Origin: a virus
IMG/VR virus record: IMGVR_UViG_3300046804_003518
Coordinates: 1 to 64,000 of that record
Length of the DNA stretch: 64,000 nucleotides
Strand: one strand, 5' to 3'
Shown here: piece by piece, positions 18,495 through 63,944 of the stretch
Position numbering within the stretch: position 1 is the first letter of the stretch
Layout: each line of letters begins with the position of its first letter
The notes under the pieces: model-generated
Database searches by the model: none
What the model was told of the DNA's origin: nothing
Seen by the model: the letters and a program-made list of their open reading frames with translations, nothing else
Translations under genes and position numbers: made by a program

Positions 18495-20294
18495 ATGGCT
18501 AATGGATTCCTTACAACTTCAGAACTAGATTTTTCAAACTATAAATCTAGCCTAAAGACTTTCTTATCCCAACAAGATATCTTCAAAGACTATAACTTTG
18601 AAGGCTCTAACATGGCCGTATTGCTTGATGTTTTAGCGTATAACACTTATCTTAATGGTGTGTATCTTAACATGGTTGGCAGTGAAATGTTTTTAGATAC
18701 CGCTGCATTGAGAGAATCAATTGTATCGCACGCCAAAGAACTAAATTACACTCCTCGTTCTAGAACAGCTGCAGCAGCATATGTTAATATTACTATTACT
18801 CCAGATGACAATCCTGACTCAATTACAATTCCAAAGTACTATCAAATTAACGGTGAGACAAAAGATAATACAACATATTTCTTCACTACTGATGAGGCAA
18901 TTGTAATTAGACCAGATAACGGTGTCTATCAGGCAGCTAATGTTGCAGTATATGAAGGAAACATTGTTAAGGAAGTATTTGTTGCCAATGCAACAGCTCG
19001 TTATTTACTACAATCTGCAAATGTTGATATTCAATCCCTTAATGTTACTATAAAAGACTCTGCCACATCTACAACAGAAACAAAGTGGAATAGAGAAACA
19101 TTTCTGTTTGGTTTAGACAACGCTGACAACGTGTACTTTGTACAAGGTGCCGAAGATCACATGTATGAAGTTGTGTTTGGTAATGGCGATATTGGTAAAG
19201 CACTTGTTGATGGTAATGTTATTACTATTACCTATAGAGAGACAAACGGCATTGATGCTAATGGCGTAGACATATTCTCAGCTCCAAACAGCATCCAAGG
19301 TTACCAAGGAGTTGGTGTAACAACAGTTCAATCTTCTGCTCAAGGATCCGAGCATGAAACTAATGATGAGATTAAGTTCAATGCTCCTCGCTACTTCCCA
19401 ACTCAAAATAGAGCAGTAACAGTAGAAGATTATATTGCATTAACAAAACAAGCATTCCCATCTCTTGAAATTGTTACAGCTTATGGTGGTGAAGAAACAG
19501 AACCAAAACAATACGGTAAAGTAATTGTTGCCGCCAAGCCAATTGGTGGTACAAAACTACCAACTCCGCTCAAGACACAAATTTACAATTTCTTAAAAGA
19601 AAGATCTGCCATATCAATTGATCCAGTTGTAATTGATCCAGAGTATTTCTTTGCTGAAGTTGTAACAGAGGTTCTCTATAATATCAACTTAACAACAAGA
19701 TCAGAAAGAGATATTGGAGCTCTAGTTGAAGAAACAGTCATGCAATGGGGTGATAATAACCTTGCTAAGTTTGGTTCTGATCTAAGATATTCAAAACTTG
19801 TCAAGGCTATTGATGATAGTGAAGCAGCCATCATTAGTAACAATACAAAAGTAAGAATTGTTAAGCATGTTGAGGTGGATACAGGTATTCCATTTAGAAT
19901 TGCTTTTTCGTTTGAGAATGAACTAGAACAAGAAGTTTTATCGGCCAGAAAAATTTACGAAGATACTACATCTACTATTGAGTCCTCATTATTCACTTAC
20001 AATTTAAACAATATTGATTACCTTGCTAAAATTAAAGATGACAGTCAGGGTAACCTAATGATTGTATCCACAGTTAACGGTGTTGTTCAGTTGTTGAAGG
20101 ACAAGGTTGGTACAGTTGACTATGCCACAGGTACAATTTCTATTGGTGCTGTAGTGTATGAAGATGTCGGCCTCAATAACGAATTAGAAATTTATGGCAG
20201 GACAAAGAAGTTAGATATTGAAACAAATGCGAATAAAGTTCTTCAAATAGAGGCAGGACATCTTGTTGTTTCTGTCCGTGGTATTAGAGAATAA
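18495..20294 (+). CDS. 6: baseplate wedge subunit (gp6)
   Basis: ELDF...DYNFEGSNMAVLLDVLAYNT...QNRAVTVEDY motif. Confidence 0.93.
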   Translation: MANGFLTTSELDFSNYKSSLKTFLSQQDIFKDYNFEGSNMAVLLDVLAYNTYLNGVYLNMVGSEMFLDTAALRESIVSHAKELNYTPRSRTAAAAYVNITITPDDNPDSITIPKYYQINGETKDNTTYFFTTDEAIVIRPDNGVYQAANVAVYEGNIVKEVFVANATARYLLQSANVDIQSLNVTIKDSATSTTETKWNRETFLFGLDNADNVYFVQGAEDHMYEVVFGNGDIGKALVDGNVITITYRETNGIDANGVDIFSAPNSIQGYQGVGVTTVQSSAQGSEHETNDEIKFNAPRYFPTQNRAVTVEDYIALTKQAFPSLEIVTAYGGEETEPKQYGKVIVAAKPIGGTKLPTPLKTQIYNFLKERSAISIDPVVIDPEYFFAEVVTEVLYNINLTTRSERDIGALVEETVMQWGDNNLAKFGSDLRYSKLVKAIDDSEAAIISNNTKVRIVKHVEVDTGIPFRIAFSFENELEQEVLSARKIYEDTTSTIESSLFTYNLNNIDYLAKIKDDSQGNLMIVSTVNGVVQLLKDKVGTVDYATGTISIGAVVYEDVGLNNELEIYGRTKKLDIETNANKVLQIEAGHLVVSVRGIRE

Positions 20295-22291
20295 TGAAAG
20301 AACTAGAAAAGTATATATCGCCATTCATTGCTAATCAATTCCCTTCTATCTATAAAGAGGAAGGTCCTCTATTCATTGCATTTGTAAAAGCTTACTTTGA
20401 GTGGCTTGAATCACAAGACCAGGTAATTTACGATTCAAGAAGACTTCTTGAATACAGAGATGTTGATAAGACAGTGGATGTCTTTATTAATAACTTTAAA
20501 AAGAAATATATGTTTCCTATTCCAGATGATATTGCTGGCGATAAGAGACTGCTGCAGAAGCATATTAAAGAAGTTTATGGCTCAAAAGGCACAGAGCGTG
20601 GGTTAAAGCTTCTATTCCAATTATTGTTTGCTGATAATATTAGCGTCTATAAGCCAGGTGATGATGTTCTTAGACTATCAGATGGCGAATGGAATAGAGA
20701 CATTTATCTAGAGGTTTCTTACAAACCCTACAATAGTTTATTTGTGGGTGAGTTTATTAAGGGCCGCATTTCTGGTGCAAGAGCATATGTCGAGAGCTTT
20801 CAGACTAAATTTGTTAACAATAAAAACATTAACGTCTTTTACTTAACAGACGTTGTTGGTAACTTCAGAAATGATGAGGTTGTAATTATTGATGAGGCAA
20901 GGTTAGCGGAGGGACAAGTACCAGCTGTTACAGCAATCAATTCTCCAAAGATTATTGGTTCCATGACAGAAGTGGATGTTGCCAATAGAAGTTCACCATT
21001 TGGTTATTCGGTTGGCGATATTTTGGAAGTCCAGGGTAAAGGCTCTCGCGGTAAAGTTGTAGTAACAAAACTTAAAGAATTGGATGGCACAATTACATTC
21101 AATCTTGAAGATGGAGGATCCGGTTACACAATTAATAATACAGTTTTTCTAATTAAGGGTCCTGTAACTGGTGTTGTGGTTGAGAATGGTGGAGTTGGTT
21201 ACTCAAATTCTGATTATATCGTATTCTCTAATGGAACTGCTAATGCAGTAGCCAATTTAGTAACTGATGGATCAGGTACTATTCTCAACAACACTGCTGG
21301 TGGTGATACCTTATTCACCATTACTCATGGTGGCAATGGATTTTTAACTACAAATGTATTCACCGTCTCGGTTACAGTTTCAAACTCAACTGGTGGTCCT
21401 TCTGCAGGTGCTGGTGCCAACCTTGTTCCTACAATTGCAGGCGGTGGCGATTTGGCAGGACTAAGAATTGGTGCATTGTCCAACATTAAGTATTTGTTTT
21501 CTTCGGCAGCTAAAATCAATCTTGTAGGCAAGTCCCTTAACTACATTGGTACAGCAAACAGTGTTGATAATATGCTTGTTGGTCAGTTGTCGTATCCTAC
21601 AGGTACAGGGTATGGCTTATCGTCAAACGTTGCCGCAGGTTTTGATACTATATTAAAGGATGCTTTAAACTATCAAAATTATGAAGTTGGTACAATCTCA
21701 AAAATCTTTACAACAAATCCTGGTCAAGATTATACTACAAATGTGCAGATTACAGTCACCGACACTATCATTGGTTTAATGGGTTTATTGGATAAGGAAC
21801 ATCCGGCGGGCCGTGGCGACACTGGTAATGGTTACCTAGGCAATAATGCAGTGGTAACGGGAGTCAGTGGTTTTGGTTCAACGGCTCTTGGTGAAGTTAA
21901 GGTTATTGATTCTGGTCTTGGTTATGAACAAAGAGAGGAAGCAACCCTTGTATCTCTATCAAATACAAACCTTATTACATCTGGCACAGTGTTACTAATG
22001 AAGCAAGGTCAGGGCGAAGGATTCTTTAAATCTACTCGTGGCTTTTTAAACTCTGACAAGTATATTCACGATAGTTATTATTATCAAGATTATTCATATG
22101 AAGTAAGATCGTCAGTAGTATTTAATAAGTATAGCGATCTTCTAAGAAAACTTTGGCACCCAGCTGGTGTGGAGAAGTTTGGTCGCGTGCTTGTAAGTAG
22201 TGAAGTAACATCTGCCACACCAGATGTTCTACAGCAGGCATACATAGGGGATGGGTCAACGACGTCGTTTGAAATCCCGGGTGGGGCATGA
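20294..22291 (+). CDS. 7: baseplate wedge initiator (gp7-like)
   Basis: IKEVYGSKGTERGLKLLFQLLF; DSYYYQDYSYEVRS...LWHPAG motif; follows gp6. Confidence 0.75.
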   Translation: MKELEKYISPFIANQFPSIYKEEGPLFIAFVKAYFEWLESQDQVIYDSRRLLEYRDVDKTVDVFINNFKKKYMFPIPDDIAGDKRLLQKHIKEVYGSKGTERGLKLLFQLLFADNISVYKPGDDVLRLSDGEWNRDIYLEVSYKPYNSLFVGEFIKGRISGARAYVESFQTKFVNNKNINVFYLTDVVGNFRNDEVVIIDEARLAEGQVPAVTAINSPKIIGSMTEVDVANRSSPFGYSVGDILEVQGKGSRGKVVVTKLKELDGTITFNLEDGGSGYTINNTVFLIKGPVTGVVVENGGVGYSNSDYIVFSNGTANAVANLVTDGSGTILNNTAGGDTLFTITHGGNGFLTTNVFTVSVTVSNSTGGPSAGAGANLVPTIAGGGDLAGLRIGALSNIKYLFSSAAKINLVGKSLNYIGTANSVDNMLVGQLSYPTGTGYGLSSNVAAGFDTILKDALNYQNYEVGTISKIFTTNPGQDYTTNVQITVTDTIIGLMGLLDKEHPAGRGDTGNGYLGNNAVVTGVSGFGSTALGEVKVIDSGLGYEQREEATLVSLSNTNLITSGTVLLMKQGQGEGFFKSTRGFLNSDKYIHDSYYYQDYSYEVRSSVVFNKYSDLLRKLWHPAGVEKFGRVLVSSEVTSATPDVLQQAYIGDGSTTSFEIPGGA

Positions 22292-56410: not shown

Positions 56411-59400
56411 ATGCCAGGTAAATTATTCTTTAATGACAACGGCACTCTGAGAGAAGCCGAAATTCTGAAAGTCAACGATGGCGGTATTCTACGTACCGTT
56501 AGGGATGCCTATGTTAATCAGAATGGTGTTCTAAGGCAAATTTACTCTGCTACAAAAGATACATCATACGAAACTTCTAGATCAACTGTATTTGAGACAG
56601 TCATTGTCACGACATTTGATACAACAATTTCAACAAATAGAAATACAACAACTGCTTTTGTGACGTTGTTTGAAACTGGCTATGATACAAGCAAGGCAAC
56701 TGCAACAAATAGAAACACTTCTACATCCAGAGCAACTGCCTACGCTACAACAAGAACAACTGCAACTGTATTTCAAACTTTAACCGTATTTGAAACAACA
56801 ATTGGTACTAATAGAGTAACATCAACCTCTAGGGCTACCACGACAAGTTTCCTCACTAACACTGTATTTGAAACAACTATCAATACAGCAAGAAATACTG
56901 CAACTTCTAGAGCTACCACAACAATATTTATTACAAACACTGTATTTGAAACAACTATCAATACAGCAAGAAATACTGCAACCTCAAAATCAACTGCAAC
57001 GGTATTTGACACCAATACAGTATTTGATACAACAATTAATACAGCAAGAAATACTGCAACAAGCAGAAGTACAGATTCTGTATTTGATACTGTAATTGGC
57101 ACAAATAGAACTACTCTATCTGTATTCAATACCGTTACGGCGTTTCAAACAACAACGGCGTTTGAAACTGCTTATGCTACAACCACAGTATTCAATACGA
57201 CAACTACGTTTGATACGGTAATTGATACTGCTCGTAATACAGCAACCACAAGATCTACAACCACTGCTTATGACACTGGGTATGATACAAGTAAGATAAC
57301 AAATACAGTATTCAATACTGGTACAATAAAAGATACCGTTATTGACACATCTAGATCTACTGCAACAAGTATAGCTACAACAACTGTCTTCCAGACGGCC
57401 TATGCTACAAGCAGAGCCACAGCAACTAGCAGATCTACAGATACTACAATTGATACATCTAGAGCTACAGCAACTAGCAGATCCACAGATACTACAATTG
57501 ATACATCTAGAGCAACGGCTACCTCTAGAGCAACTGACACAACAATTGTTACATCTAGGTTGACAGATACGTCTCAATCTACCACAACAACATTTAACAC
57601 AACAACGACGTTTGACACTGCTTACGCAACGACGACGACGTTTAATACTACAACTACGTTTGACACAGCATATGCTACGACAACAACGTTTAATACCACA
57701 ACTACGTTTGATACTATAATTGCAACAACAAGAGCAACAGACACTTCAAGATCAACCACTACTACGTTCCAAACAACGACAGTATTTCAAACAACTACTA
57801 CATTCCAAACAACAACTACGTTTAACACTATTACAACTTATATCACCTCTCTAGGTGGTAACACTGTATTCCAAACAACAACTACGTTTAATACTATTAC
57901 AACGTATATTACCACTCTTGTTGCTGGAACAACTAGAGCAACTGACACTTCAAGATCAACTACTACCACGTTCCAGACAACGACTGTATTTAATACAATC
58001 ACAACGTATATTACTACTCTTGTTAATGCAACTTCAAGAGCAACCGATACATCTAGAGCCACAACTACAACATTCCAGACTACAACTACATTTGGTACTA
58101 CGTTCTTCTTTAATACAAGTAAGGCAACAACATTCTACTTCAATACAACAACTACATTTGGTACTACGTTCTTCTTTAATACAAGTAAGGCAACTACGTT
58201 TTACTTCAACACATCTGTTATTACAACAACAACATTTATTACGTCAGCTGTTGGTCTTACAACGTTTATTACAACGGCTGTTGCTGGTACAAGTAAGGCA
58301 ACGACGTTCTACTTTAACACAACATACATCACAACAGCCGCTGCTGCAACCTCTAAGGCTACAACATTCTACTTTAACACAAGTGTTGGTGGTACTACAT
58401 ATTTCAGCTCAGGGTTCATAACAACATTCTACACAGTGATTGGTATAGCCTATTACAAATGGTGGTCAAACCAGTACTTTGGCAATACAACCAGAGCCAC
58501 ATCTGTAATTACATCCAAGGCTACAACATTCTACTTTGGCACAAGTGCTGGTGGTACTACCTACTTTAATACAACATTCTACTTTAATACAGTTAGAGGT
58601 ACCAGTGCTGGTGGTACTACTTTCTTCAACACTACCTTTTATTTCAATACGTCTAGAAACACGACGTTCTACTTTAACACAGCTAGAGCAACAACATCTA
58701 CCTTTATCACAACTCTAGGTGGTATCACAACATTCATTACAACTCTAGGTGGTACAACATCTAGAGCAACAGGTACTTCAGTTGGTGGTATTACTACATT
58801 TATTACAACATTGGGTGGTACAACATCTAGAGCAACAGATACGTCTAGAGCAACTACAACCACATTCCAAACAACAACAACGTTTAACACTACGTTCTTT
58901 TTTAATACAACTCTTGCTACAGCCACTTCTAGAGCAACAGATACGTCTAGAGCAACAACTACAACATTTCAGACAACAACTGCATTCAACACAACATTCT
59001 TCTTTAATACAACTCTAGCAACTGCAACTTCTAGAGCAACTGATACGTCTAGAGCAACTACGTTCTTCTTTAATACTACTTTGGCCACGGCAACAAGTAG
59101 AGCAACCGATACATCTAGAGTAACTGATACTTCTAGAGCTACTGACACATCTAGAGCTACAACAACAGTTTTCCAAACAACAACAACGTTTGAGACTGCC
59201 TATGCTACAAGCAGAGCTACCGCAACCAGCAGATCTACTGACACAACAATTAGCACATCTAGAGCTACTGCAACAAGTAGAGCAACAGATACAACAATTA
59301 GCACATCTAGAGCTACTGCAACAAGTAGAGCTACAACTACTGTCTTCCAGACAACAACAGCATTTAATACAGCTTATGCTACAACAACGGTATTTGATAC

Positions 59401-60370
59401 TACAACAACATTTGCTACTGCATATGCAACCACAACAATATTCAACACAACTACAACATTTGCTACTGCATATGCTACAACAACGGTATTCAATACAACG
59501 ACAACATTCGACACTGTAATTGATACAAACAAGTCAACTACTTCAGTATTCAATACAACCACAACATTTGCTACTGCCTACCAAACATCAGATGTTAAGT
59601 CAACTAACTTTGATACATCAACTGCCTATAACACTCTTGTTGGTACAAGCAAGTCAACAATATCAACATTTGATACATCTACTACATTTCAGACAGCTTA
59701 TGCAACAAATAGAGTTACTGCTACAGATAGATCAACCGACACTATAATTGGCACTTCTAGAGCAACTGAGACATCTAGAAATACAGCTACTGATAGAAAT
59801 ACCGTAACGGCATTTGAAACTGCATATGCTACAAACATTGCAACAACAACCGTATTTGATACATCAACAACATTTGAAACTTCTTATGCTACTGGTAGAA
59901 ACACATCAACCAACCGTTTAACGACATCGGTGTTTGATACATCAACAACATTTGAAACGACGTATGATACAAACTTTGATACACTAACCAACCGTTCAAC
60001 AACATCGGTATTTGATACATCAACAACATTTGAAACAACTTATAATACAAACTTTGATACACTTACAAGCCGCTCAACAACGTCTGTATTTGATACAACA
60101 ACATCATTTGAAACGACGTATGACACAAATATCCTTACATCAACTTCAAGAAATACAGTATCAACATTTGATACCGAGATTGTAACTGTATTTGATACTG
60201 TAACGGTATTCAATACAACAACATCTTACGACTCGCAATATGGCACAGACCGTGCAACAAGTAAGACAACAACTTCTGTGTTCAATACAGCCTATGCTAC
60301 AAATCGCAATACGGCATTCAACACATCACAAAACACAACATTCAATACAACTATCGAAACATACTTCTAA
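56411..60370 (+). CDS. 1319 aa Thr-rich self-complementary beta-hairpin fibre protein
   Basis: Mirror register i+j=1368 verified at residues 49-173/1195-1319 and 583-673/695-785; apex IAYYKWWSNQY. Confidence 0.85.
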   Translation: MPGKLFFNDNGTLREAEILKVNDGGILRTVRDAYVNQNGVLRQIYSATKDTSYETSRSTVFETVIVTTFDTTISTNRNTTTAFVTLFETGYDTSKATATNRNTSTSRATAYATTRTTATVFQTLTVFETTIGTNRVTSTSRATTTSFLTNTVFETTINTARNTATSRATTTIFITNTVFETTINTARNTATSKSTATVFDTNTVFDTTINTARNTATSRSTDSVFDTVIGTNRTTLSVFNTVTAFQTTTAFETAYATTTVFNTTTTFDTVIDTARNTATTRSTTTAYDTGYDTSKITNTVFNTGTIKDTVIDTSRSTATSIATTTVFQTAYATSRATATSRSTDTTIDTSRATATSRSTDTTIDTSRATATSRATDTTIVTSRLTDTSQSTTTTFNTTTTFDTAYATTTTFNTTTTFDTAYATTTTFNTTTTFDTIIATTRATDTSRSTTTTFQTTTVFQTTTTFQTTTTFNTITTYITSLGGNTVFQTTTTFNTITTYITTLVAGTTRATDTSRSTTTTFQTTTVFNTITTYITTLVNATSRATDTSRATTTTFQTTTTFGTTFFFNTSKATTFYFNTTTTFGTTFFFNTSKATTFYFNTSVITTTTFITSAVGLTTFITTAVAGTSKATTFYFNTTYITTAAAATSKATTFYFNTSVGGTTYFSSGFITTFYTVIGIAYYKWWSNQYFGNTTRATSVITSKATTFYFGTSAGGTTYFNTTFYFNTVRGTSAGGTTFFNTTFYFNTSRNTTFYFNTARATTSTFITTLGGITTFITTLGGTTSRATGTSVGGITTFITTLGGTTSRATDTSRATTTTFQTTTTFNTTFFFNTTLATATSRATDTSRATTTTFQTTTAFNTTFFFNTTLATATSRATDTSRATTFFFNTTLATATSRATDTSRVTDTSRATDTSRATTTVFQTTTTFETAYATSRATATSRSTDTTISTSRATATSRATDTTISTSRATATSRATTTVFQTTTAFNTAYATTTVFDTTTTFATAYATTTIFNTTTTFATAYATTTVFNTTTTFDTVIDTNKSTTSVFNTTTTFATAYQTSDVKSTNFDTSTAYNTLVGTSKSTISTFDTSTTFQTAYATNRVTATDRSTDTIIGTSRATETSRNTATDRNTVTAFETAYATNIATTTVFDTSTTFETSYATGRNTSTNRLTTSVFDTSTTFETTYDTNFDTLTNRSTTSVFDTSTTFETTYNTNFDTLTSRSTTSVFDTTTSFETTYDTNILTSTSRNTVSTFDTEIVTVFDTVTVFNTTTSYDSQYGTDRATSKTTTSVFNTAYATNRNTAFNTSQNTTFNTTIETYF
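56858..57080 (+). repeat. 78-bp coding tandem repeat (about 3 copies), N arm
   Basis: Units start at 56858, 56936 and 57014; the first two share 47 identical nt. Confidence 0.85.
59924..60130 (+). repeat. 78-bp coding tandem repeat (about 3 copies), C arm
   Basis: Units start at 59924, 60002 and 60080 (TSVFDTSTTFETTYxTNFDTLTxRST). Confidence 0.85.
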
Positions 60371-60376
60371 ACGCAT

Positions 60377-60384
60377 TATAAATA
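60377..60384 (+). promoter_or_regulatory. T4-type late promoter
   Basis: TATAAATA just after the hairpin-fibre stop. Confidence 0.75.
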
Positions 60385-61608: not shown

Positions 61609-62498
61609 AAACTATATTAATTGCCCAACATCATGGTACGTTTTTTACCTTAAATTCTTTAAAAGAAAAAGGTATAACGGATGTAACTATTATTATTCCC
61701 GGTAGCCAAGTTAACAAGTACAATGATATGTACAATAATAACTCTAGCAATCCAGAATATAAGCCATTTGAAAAGTATGACAATTTGGTTTCTTCTTTCC
61801 TAAAGAAGAATAATCTCAATTACAAGGCCTATGTTGTAGAAGATTTTGATGTTAGGAACACATTAGTTTCAACACTAAAGGTTATTGCTGATTTGGGATA
61901 TCAAGAAATTGTAGCGTGCATTTTGAGTGGTACTGTTGTTAATAAAGACTATAGATCAACCGCCAAAGAAGCCTTAAACTTTAAGACATTTGGAATGTGT
62001 TATTCCAGAGTTTATCATGGCCACAATCAGCTCTCAATGTACCACATGCTTGGATTGCCTCAACATGATCCATCATTGGATTTAAACTTTTTTATTGTTG
62101 ACATGAGCAAAATTAAACTTTCTGACTTGCAGAAGGGAGACGGTGAGCTTTTATCTGAGTCTGTTAAGAAAAAGCAAGTAAACATTATTGGTAGAGAATA
62201 TAATGGAAAGGACGATGCGCTAATTGGTACTGCAATTTCTGCTCGCCAAACAATTGCCCACAATCTTAAAATCCAATCAGGTTACATTGTCAACTTATGG
62301 AATAAGTCGATCAAAGCAAATAGTCTATTGAAATCAGAAGAATTCTATGGCTACCCTTTGAATATATACAGCACTCTTGGGGCAAATCTTGACGGGTATC
62401 TACCAAAAAGTACGCTGGATAAGATCATCACGAATGGTAAAGAAACGGAAAAACTCACTAGCGGTCTTTATGAATGTCTGGATATAATTGATCTATAA
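61605..62498 (+). CDS. GT8-like (GT-A fold) glycosyltransferase-like protein
   Basis: DLNFFIVDMSKIK resembles FNSGVMLIDL and GREYN resembles ..YN; no clear DxD. Confidence 0.35.
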   Translation: MKTILIAQHHGTFFTLNSLKEKGITDVTIIIPGSQVNKYNDMYNNNSSNPEYKPFEKYDNLVSSFLKKNNLNYKAYVVEDFDVRNTLVSTLKVIADLGYQEIVACILSGTVVNKDYRSTAKEALNFKTFGMCYSRVYHGHNQLSMYHMLGLPQHDPSLDLNFFIVDMSKIKLSDLQKGDGELLSESVKKKQVNIIGREYNGKDDALIGTAISARQTIAHNLKIQSGYIVNLWNKSIKANSLLKSEEFYGYPLNIYSTLGANLDGYLPKSTLDKIITNGKETEKLTSGLYECLDIIDL

Positions 62499-62501
62499 AT
62501 A
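62494..62501 (+). promoter_or_regulatory. T4-type late promoter
   Basis: TATAAATA upstream of gp13. Confidence 0.75.
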
Positions 62502-62533: not shown

Positions 62534-63274
62534 ATGGCAGTTCCAGCAACTAGATCTGAATTTAAAGAGTATTGCCTTCGTAAACTAGGTAAGCCAGTCA
62601 TTGAAATCAACGTTGATGATGATCAGGTTGAAGACCGTATTGACGAGGCGTTGAAATACTACTGGGATTATCATTTTGATGGGTCTGAGAAGACATATTA
62701 CAAACATCTAATTACAGCCTCAGATATTGCTAACAAATACATTACTCTACCAGAAAACATTATTGGTGTTGTTAAGCTATTCCCTGTTGGCCAAAGCTTA
62801 AACACAATGAATCTTTTCAACATCCGCTACCAGATTGCGTTAAATGATCTTTACACTCTAACAACGCAATCCATGATTCCATATGTCATGGCAATGCAGC
62901 ATATTCAATTCCTAGAAGAAATTTTAGTTGGCCAGAAGCCAGTCCGTTATAGCAGACACAAAGATAGATTGTTTATTGATATGGATTGGGGCCAGGCTGT
63001 TGAAGGTGAGTATTTTGTTGTGGAGGCGTACCAAGTAATAGATCCAGATACATTTACAGATGTTTGGGGCGATCGCTGGCTATCCCTCTACACAACTGCA
63101 CTTATTAAGTATCAATGGGGATCAAACCTAACTAAATTTACTGGTATGGTTCTTCCTGGTGGCGTTCAATTCAATGGTGAAAAAATCCAGGATGATGCCA
63201 AGGCTGAGATTGAGGCACTAGAGCAAGAAATGCAGACATCATATACATTACCAGCATACCATATGGTAGGATAA
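62534..63274 (+). CDS. 13: neck protein (gp13)
   Basis: EFKEYCLRKLGKPVIEINVDDDQVEDRIDEAL...YTTALIKYQWGSNL...LPGGVQFNG. Confidence 0.95.
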   Translation: MAVPATRSEFKEYCLRKLGKPVIEINVDDDQVEDRIDEALKYYWDYHFDGSEKTYYKHLITASDIANKYITLPENIIGVVKLFPVGQSLNTMNLFNIRYQIALNDLYTLTTQSMIPYVMAMQHIQFLEEILVGQKPVRYSRHKDRLFIDMDWGQAVEGEYFVVEAYQVIDPDTFTDVWGDRWLSLYTTALIKYQWGSNLTKFTGMVLPGGVQFNGEKIQDDAKAEIEALEQEMQTSYTLPAYHMVG

Positions 63275-63275
63275 C

Positions 63276-63944
63276 GTGGCTACCAACTTTTACTTTAATA
63301 ATTTTCAAAATAGCCAAGAACAAAACTTAATTGAAGATCTAGTAATAGAATCAATTAAGATCTATGGCCATGAGGTTTGGTATTGCCCAAGAACAGTTAC
63401 TGTTGAGGAGTCTATCTTCAAAGAAGACCAGCTAGCTGCCTTCAACAATGCCTACTCTATTGAAATGTATATTAAAAATGTTGAGGGCTTTGAGGGTGAG
63501 GGCGATTTCTTATCTAAGTTTGGTTTACAAATTAGAGACAGAATCACATTCACAGTTTCAAGAAGATCATTTACAGATGAAGTAACTGGTCTTACAAGAC
63601 CAAAGGAAGGAGATATGGTCTTCTTTCCATTAACCTCAAAGGGATATGTGGTGAGATTTGTTGAGCACGAGGCAATCTTTTATCAAATGGGTTCACTACA
63701 AACATTTGATCTCGTATGTGAATTGTTTGAGTTTAACCAGGAAACATTCAATACTGGCGTTGATATTATTGATGATACCTATAATGATCTAAGCTTTGCT
63801 ATGGCCAATAATACTCAGCAGGTTACCCAGTTCAATATTTCTACAATCGATAAGCAGGCTCAGAACGAAGAGTTTGAAACAAAGGGTAGCGATATTCTTG
63901 ACTTCACTGAAATCAATCCATTCTCAGAGGCTAATACCTACTAA
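63276..63944 (+). CDS. 14: neck protein (gp14)
   Basis: EQNLIEDLVIESIKIYG...LSKFGLQIRD...RPKEGD; GTG start. Confidence 0.93.
   Translation: MATNFYFNNFQNSQEQNLIEDLVIESIKIYGHEVWYCPRTVTVEESIFKEDQLAAFNNAYSIEMYIKNVEGFEGEGDFLSKFGLQIRDRITFTVSRRSFTDEVTGLTRPKEGDMVFFPLTSKGYVVRFVEHEAIFYQMGSLQTFDLVCELFEFNQETFNTGVDIIDDTYNDLSFAMANNTQQVTQFNISTIDKQAQNEEFETKGSDILDFTEINPFSEANTY

Follow-up and report, generated by a model that had tools for sequence, protein, structure and literature searches.

What does a bacteriophage do with a protein of 1319 amino acids (aa) of which more than a third are threonine, and what gives such a chain its shape? The question is raised by the gene P0001 in the first 64 kb (64,000 nucleotides (nt), hereafter the window) of the complete 188,323-bp IMG/VR record IMGVR_UViG_3300046804_003518, an uncultured T4-like phage. 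Its product, also called P0001 here, contains 37% Thr, no His and no Cys, a single Met, a single Pro (P2) and two Trp (W684 and W685). The chain follows a strict, β-strand-like two-residue alternation in which Thr, Phe, Arg, Tyr, Ile and Lys take the odd positions and Thr, Ala, Ser, Asn, Asp and Val the even ones. A sequence-only reading of the locus had proposed that the two halves of the chain face each other in a hairpin, with residues that complement one another like bases across it and thereby fix the register. From the analyses reported here, P0001 is quite probably a virion fibre composed of one antiparallel two-stranded β-hairpin, locked in register by a pairing code, with an exchangeable tip cassette as its likely host-recognition end.

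We describe each mirror register by S = i + j, the sum of the positions of two residues that face each other in a rung. Registers from S=1200 to S=1539 were scanned, and the rungs joining a basic to an aromatic residue, two basic residues or two aromatic residues were counted. At S=1368 the scan found 74 basic–aromatic, 4 aromatic–aromatic and no basic–basic pairs, compared with means of 16.1 (standard deviation (sd) 6.9), 15.5 and 4.3, respectively, at the other even registers. The sequence-only reading had noticed the lack of basic–basic pairs at this register, and all residues and triplets named in it were found at their positions in P0001. Over 20,000 permutations of the odd-position residues of the second arm, 17.1 basic–aromatic pairs were left on average (sd 3.5, maximum 32), versus 75 observed. 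Past residue 48, Phe, Tyr or Trp lies opposite 75 of the 77 Lys and Arg, in agreement with the earlier claim that basic residues face aromatic ones; only K307 (opposite D1061) and K1063 (opposite T305) have no aromatic partner. Ile at odd positions faces Tyr or Phe in 23 of 24 cases, and all 13 aromatic triplets are opposite small ones (LGG, VGG, AGG, AAA, AVA, AVG, LVN or LVA), both as had been claimed.

The table of odd-face pairs includes T–T (166), F–R (61), I–Y (19), F–K (9), F–G (9) and A–F (8). F–F is depleted on this face (3 versus 9.7 expected), the combinations R–T, F–T, I–T and Y–T do not occur at all, and one Lys is the sole large residue opposite Thr. Mutual information on the odd face amounts to 1.54 bits at S=1368 versus 0.28 (sd 0.07) at other registers. 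A local mirror scan (score 268) kept to this single register, free of indels, all the way from residue 49 to the last residue, 1319. The pattern is therefore present between nt 58150 and 58770, to which the sequence-only reading had assigned it, but is not limited to that interval. The large rungs are unevenly spaced, 4 or 6 residues apart, and if the arms are slipped by 2–12 residues, the number of good rungs falls from 274 to 68–176 and that of bad ones rises from 14 to 122–240. The mirror pairing pattern is thus confirmed as real and lies far beyond chance.

Low-complexity tandem repeats or a DNA palindrome might in principle generate a mirror pattern that is structurally meaningless. The P0001 gene is rich in direct DNA repeats, with periods of 18, 48 and 78 nt among others, and the repeat length varies along the chain (6, 16 and 26 residues). 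Registers shifted by 6 are also above average, namely the runners-up S=1374 (39 pairs) and S=1362 (37 pairs), which are elevated because they echo the 6-residue repeat. However, S=1368 stands 8 sd above the rest and at twice its best echo, and the repeats that face each other differ in sequence. Inverted repeats are absent from the gene, and reverse-complement codons cannot give Thr–Thr or Phe–Arg pairs. An origin as a DNA palindrome was thus ruled out, and the mirror symmetry must be one at the protein level. Moreover, every orthologue obeys this rule at a single register and has indels that are balanced between its arms, and we regard a mere by-product of repeats as highly improbable.

Syntenic orthologues were taken from viral and metagenome contigs, five of them full-length beyond P0001 itself (1155–1299 aa). 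Each has its own register: S=1216 in L011 (1169 aa, 63 basic–aromatic pairs), S=1292 in L010 (1299 aa, 66 pairs), S=1280 in L009 (1287 aa, 58 pairs), S=1204 in L025 (1155 aa, 65 pairs) and S=1335 in L027 (1286 aa, 74 pairs), and in none of them does a basic residue face another. The last paired residue is opposite residue 49 (residue 47 in L011); S minus length hence equals 49 or 47, and −7 where a 56-aa C-terminal tail has been added (L009 and L010). Between phages, the arms differ by up to 76 residues each, yet within each protein they are exactly equal, with net indels versus P0001, tails set aside, of 76/76, 38/38 and 44/44. Where one arm has an indel of 26, 16, 14 or 2 residues, the other has one of the same size at the mirror position, and since all these lengths are even, the two faces of the chain are preserved. 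A few rungs have been altered on both sides and are still complementary (F–R to Y–I, I–Y to R–F). At the level of sequence evolution, a pairing code is well supported.

The same module is found in two further settings. P0002, the second giant Thr-rich protein of the window phage (2035 aa), is encoded between gp7-like and gp8-like baseplate genes. Two mirror registers are seen in it, the first at S=1109 with arms 79–515 and 594–1030 enclosing a loop domain of ~78 aa, the second at S=2551 with arms 1131–1271 and 1280–1420. Its C-terminal region repeats the motif TFQTDSGAGT[LM], which also closes the C-terminal tails of the L009 and L010 orthologues. In addition, the mirror module occupies the C-terminal half (~residues 710–1250) of gp7-type baseplate proteins of ~1290 aa (PF23786), which are the sole sequence relatives outside the P0001 orthologues. 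Nine of the ten gp7-fused relatives scanned (P0003–P0012) have one clear register with 23–35 pairs and no basic–basic pair; the shortest, P0011, has no clear register. The complementarity that the sequence-only reading had likened to base pairing accordingly is restricted to one register and recurs in the five orthologues, the gp7-fused relatives and P0002, always with zero basic–basic pairs.

One of these gp7 proteins belongs to a cultured phage. The gp7 of Stenotrophomonas phage DLP6 (P0022, AMQ65900.1; L015:11408-15274, corresponding to KU682439.2 151407-155273) is, by inspection, near-identical to P0012, for which the register scan gave S=1949. The DLP6 report gives AMQ65900.1 as gp7; the word 'threonine' is absent from its text, and a repeat is not mentioned in the passages searched (PMC5349666). 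With the module present in a cultured phage, a ready experimental system is at hand. P0001 itself is no gp7 wedge protein: it has no PF23786 match (E up to 1), whereas P0003–P0012 have this domain. Instead of the wedge domain, P0001 carries a 48-aa repeat anchor, and its putative hairpin exceeds that of the gp7 proteins more than twofold in length, while the Thr-rich mirror module and its code, without any basic–basic pair, are those of the C-terminal half of DLP6-type gp7. In the window phage, the gp7-like wedge domain and the hairpin protein are encoded by separate genes.

How might the P0001 chain then be arranged on the virion? We propose that it leaves an anchor formed by residues 1–48, turns at residue 684 and runs back to the base. 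Residues 49–679 and 689–1319 would pair as antiparallel β-strands of ~631 residues each, and the resulting hairpin could reach up to ~200 nm if extended (0.33 nm per residue). On one face, each rung would be either Thr–Thr or a complementary pair of large residues; in these pairs, Phe partners Arg or Lys and Ile partners Tyr, and each residue may sit on either arm. The Phe–Arg contacts would be cation–π stacks and Ile–Tyr a second, orthogonal pair, and near the tip FYF and FFF knobs may fill xGG and AAA holes on both faces. With the irregular spacing of 4 or 6 residues, any slip would bring large residues opposite Thr or make Arg or Phe face its own kind, so that the register would be locked. 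The fibre might be a neck whisker or a baseplate/tail fibre. The sequences themselves show the pairing rules, their restriction to a single register, their conservation, the equal lengths of the arms and the mosaic nature of the tip; from these we infer the β-hairpin geometry, the cation–π chemistry, the setting of register by the code during folding, the N-terminal anchor and receptor binding by the tip.

The 48 N-terminal residues are nearly invariant among orthologues. Their VNDNGTLR-type module also heads small proteins of 137–239 aa with unrelated C-terminal domains (P0014, P0016, P0017, P0019 and P0020; L031:2730-3257), and in another phage one gene with this module follows an SU10-type adaptor gene (PF24175) at a distance of two genes. 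Residues 1–48 are therefore presumed to be the virion anchor, possibly near the neck, and the VNDNGTLR-type module appears to be a portable unit for docking to the virion, one for which Pfam has no family.

Several observations weigh against the proposed hairpin. On the even face, the information is weak and broad (0.69 bits at S=1368 and 0.85 at S=1366), and there is no sharp register signal; taken together with the sharp odd-face signal, this means that the code resides on one face. AlphaFold2 run on residues 484–884 as a single sequence returned short strands, no helix and no hairpin at a predicted local distance difference test score (pLDDT) of 40, and for residues 600–768 with a four-sequence alignment it returned no secondary structure (pLDDT 28). 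A three-copy ESMFold prediction of residues 600–768 scored 0.00. The structure predictions are hence uninformative, and it is sequence covariation that carries the hairpin. In addition, a two-stranded ribbon that lacks a hydrophobic core would be unusual as a free-standing object, and extra chains or partners may thus be needed. A further point is L026, which shares 1262 of 1264 residues with L027 and has one 22-aa deletion in its descending arm only. Its register splits into 1313 in the basal and 1335 in the distal part, leaving a 22-residue bulge, and L028 varies at the same spot. The unbalanced deletion is either a natural imbalance, tolerated or intermediate, or a repeat collapsed in the assembly. 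Finally, pairing of arm 1 with arm 2 between chains would yield an identical contact map.

Such an antiparallel register between chains could be that of a strand-swapped dimer or trimer, or of a trimer of hairpins wound into a six-stranded needle resembling the tip of T4 gp37, and the code would then direct assembly in addition to folding. The covariation at i + j = 1368 fits intra- and inter-chain pairing alike, and most known phage fibres are trimeric. In T4 gp37, too, the chains extend to the tip and return (PDB 2XGF); its needle and iron sites are described in PMC6957217. The centre of symmetry of P0001, however, is residue 684 and not the chain midpoint at 660, and it coincides with the sole non-repetitive Trp/Pro/Gly loop in every relative, as would be the case for a real turn. 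Also, the C-terminal residue is always opposite residue 49, directly after the anchor. A second in-plane partner would give a second clean register, but all other registers contain more than 120 clashing rungs. The singular central loop and the position of the C-terminus hence favour a turn within the chain, and we consider pairing between chains unlikely.

With the single-chain hairpin as the preferred arrangement, a more far-reaching formulation can be given. A digital, base-pair-like code might zip a single chain into a two-stranded β-ribbon of ~631 rungs and ~200 nm, using Phe–Arg/Lys and Ile–Tyr pairs with Thr–Thr spacers; such fibres would form a class apart from triple β-helices, β-spirals and coiled coils, would evolve by paired arm duplications and tip swaps, and would be invisible to current predictors. 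We put this forward tentatively, as a proposal that falls just short of an even call. P0001 is regarded here as a new architectural variant of phage fibre, and the chance that its fold forms a fibrous class of its own is substantial.

Where on the hairpin might recognition take place? Each orthologue is repetitive except at its apex, and both the Trp of P0001 and the internal Pro of the orthologues are confined to this spot. In the sequence-only reading, the exposed YYKWW apex (nt 58436–58486, i.e., residues 676–692) was the adhesion site. The apexes of the orthologues read YYKGIPIPYY, YFKGQPLQAP, YYKGIPLPYY, YFIKGNGPYY and YGYLWGQPESWF. With P0001 included, the ascending side keeps [YF][YF]K[GW], and the descending side is the most variable piece (WSNQYF, IPIPYY, QPLQAP, IPLPYY, NGPYY, QPESWF and FLSVHMRY). 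A comparison among homologues upheld the aromatic character of the apex, which is also rich in Gly or Pro, in all seven readable relatives (six full-length genes and the partial L012). In contrast, the two Trp of P0001 are not conserved, and variation covers the distal third of the hairpin instead of the loop alone.

This distal variation is best seen between close relatives. At the DNA level, L009 and L010 are ~97% identical over flanking genes and basal arms but only 35–70% over ~residues 460–810, and the boundaries of the divergent part add up to S=1280, mirror-symmetric within the 40-residue resolution. L020 is a third allele with the same pattern; among the three, basal arms are 90–100% identical and the region of ~aa 460–810 is 25–70% identical. 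The variable piece of ~340 residues would correspond to ~170 rungs plus the loop. In P0001, the distal zone (57848–59074) matches this cassette swapped between near-identical relatives, and it includes the interval singled out by the sequence-only reading. With the predicted reversal of the chain at the tip, one contiguous DNA segment of ~1 kb encodes the distal arms and the loop, and a single exchange thus replaces a self-balanced tip. A swapped tip cassette is what one would expect of a gene that determines host specificity, and as far as the sequences go it argues for a role of the tip region in recognition but does not single out the YYKWW loop. As a candidate adhesin, the apex appears plausible, with indirect support from the swapped cassette.

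It is also a serious possibility that the hairpin is real and YYKWW only a turn in it. Recognition would then be left to the distal lateral surface or to another protein, e.g. the product of the hypervariable 366-aa fibre-like gene upstream, or P0001 would be a neck whisker or an environmental sensor. Apart from [YF][YF]K[GW] no element of the apex is shared, and the piece that varies between near-identical phages extends well beyond the loop. The 366-aa gene is the other strongly divergent segment between L009 and L010 and may be a second specificity determinant. Furthermore, P0001 is located where T4 carries wac, close to gp13 and gp14, and the anchor module adjoins an adaptor gene in another phage. 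On the other hand, the apex stays aromatic and Gly/Pro-rich in each readable relative while its descending side varies most, and in T4 gp37 aromatic and Gly residues of the tip contact the receptor (PMC6957217).

The T4 gp37 needle is the closest functional analogue of the proposed hairpin. In gp37 each chain runs to the distal tip and back, with the tip as the site of chain reversal, as is proposed for P0001, and in both cases tip modules are exchanged between phages. From covariation, chain reversal with both termini proximal is predicted for P0001 and all orthologues. The gp37 needle, however, is ~15 nm long, trimeric and stabilised by seven His-coordinated iron ions; neither P0001 nor its orthologues contain His or Cys, and HxH iron motifs are accordingly absent. 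The paired region of P0001 is ~40 times longer than the gp37 needle and would be set by F–R, I–Y and T–T rungs, and P0001 has no sequence match to solved gp37- or gp12-type chains.

P0001 would also resemble T4 fibritin (wac) as a long thin fibre attached by a small N-terminal domain. Its gene is just upstream of gp13/gp14, with two open reading frames (ORFs) in between. Fibritin, however, forms a trimeric coiled coil of parallel chains and ends in a foldon, whereas P0001 shows a strict two-residue alternation, 37% Thr and its only Pro at position 2. With no coiled-coil heptads, no helix in the AlphaFold2 output and no fibritin match in Pfam or PHROG, an identity as fibritin was ruled out. Thr at alternate positions and 16-residue repeats are further shared with ice-binding and ice-nucleation β-solenoids of the TxT type. 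Those pair residue i with i + period in parallel, equal coils, whereas P0001 pairs i with 1368 − i, has mixed repeat lengths and gives no Pfam match; since the constraint is mirror-type and not translational, a solenoid was ruled out as well.

Aromatic–cationic pairs are a known stabilising motif in peptides. Designed β-hairpins and single-layer sheets, such as Trp zippers, cation–π pairs and OspA-derived mimics, likewise rely on cross-strand pairs on one face and have no conventional core. These designs comprise 12–20 residues or a few strands, whereas P0001 is natural and would have ~631 consecutive rungs with two orthogonal pair types in both orientations. P0001 combines the features by which a mirror-coded hairpin module can be defined, namely a single register at which most Lys and Arg are opposite Phe, Tyr or Trp, no basic–basic pairs, Thr–Thr rungs and, at the centre, a non-repetitive aromatic apex with Gly or Pro. 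If physical, it would to our knowledge be by far the longest β-hairpin described. It would then also be a natural case of sequence-programmed β-sheet registry, which has so far been approached in protein design and amyloid research through short peptides only. Among the few folds of phage fibres, it would stand as a new architecture in which specificity may change by way of a contiguous, self-balanced DNA cassette. The rules F–R, I–Y, T–T and aromatic versus Gly triplet are directly testable and could serve for rigid nanofibres of set length. A blind spot of prediction is apparent too, as AlphaFold2 and ESMFold failed although the covariation is readable by eye.

Database searches placed P0001 in no known family. 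There was no Pfam match (E up to 1) and no PHROG family, and phmmer against all PDB chains gave no match at E up to 1. A HMMER search of 1.84 billion representatives returned 12 matches only, all of them short anchor-only proteins or gp7 fusions, and a word-index search with residues 1–60 had no match among proteins of 725–2309 aa. Searching the ESM Atlas with P0001 led to unnamed viral clusters only, with lead-level scores (best 0.87). Neither P0001 nor its N-terminal 60 aa had a tblastn match in a cultured-phage collection, where low-complexity filtering probably hid most of the P0001 sequence. No description of a Thr-rich, hairpin or ribbon phage fibre was found in the literature, in a search that took in few subscription journals.

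The coordinates of the gene, of the parts of the proposed hairpin and of neighbouring features are collected in Table 1.

Table 1. Positions in the window of the P0001 gene, of the predicted parts of its product and of other features discussed in the text
Feature	Position	Strand	Remark
P0001 gene, putative Thr-rich hairpin fibre protein, 1319 aa	56411–60370 (including stop codon)	+	ORF list and translation; frame kept in syntenic orthologues
N-terminal unpaired domain, residues 1–48, three ~14-residue VNDNGTLR-type repeats	56411–56554	+	Outside the mirror register
Ascending arm, residues 49–679	56555–58447	+	Local mirror scan, S=1368
Distal zone, ~residues 480–888, FYF/FFF versus xGG/AAA/AVA triplets	57848–59074	+	Triplets 565–885 opposite 481–801
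Apex loop, residues 680–688, AYYKWWSNQ	58448–58474	+	Mirror centre W684
Descending arm, residues 689–1319	58475–60367	+	Back to base; last residue F1319 opposite K49
gp7-like wedge domain gene	20294–22291		
P0002 gene	22288–28395	+	
366-aa gene directly upstream of P0001	55051–56151	+	Tail-fibre-like PHROG matches and a DUF4183 match
Small ORF, 62 codons	56211–56399	+	Between the 366-aa gene and P0001; below the size limit of the ORF lists used
Two conserved ORFs, 328 and 297 aa	60622–62498	+	Between P0001 and gp13; syntenic in all orthologous loci
gp13 and gp14 homologues (neck proteins)	62534–63944		Downstream of P0001

P0001 is surrounded by T4-type late genes. Homologues of gp48, gp53, gp5, gp25, gp6, gp7 and gp8 lie at 13–30 kb and are followed by several fibre-like ORFs; P0001 thus stands after baseplate and fibre genes and before the neck genes gp13 and gp14, among late structural genes. 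For the 328-aa ORF, tblastn gave a match at 51% identity in DLP6, where two hypothetical genes hold the same place before gp13. Candidate roles for the 328-aa and 297-aa products are those of a fibre chaperone or a neck-fibre partner. T4 late-promoter-like TATAAATA boxes occur seven times in the window, which is no excess over chance, and none is directly upstream of the P0001 gene. One such box is at 60377–60384, just past the P0001 stop codon, and another at 62494–62501, just ahead of the gp13 homologue.

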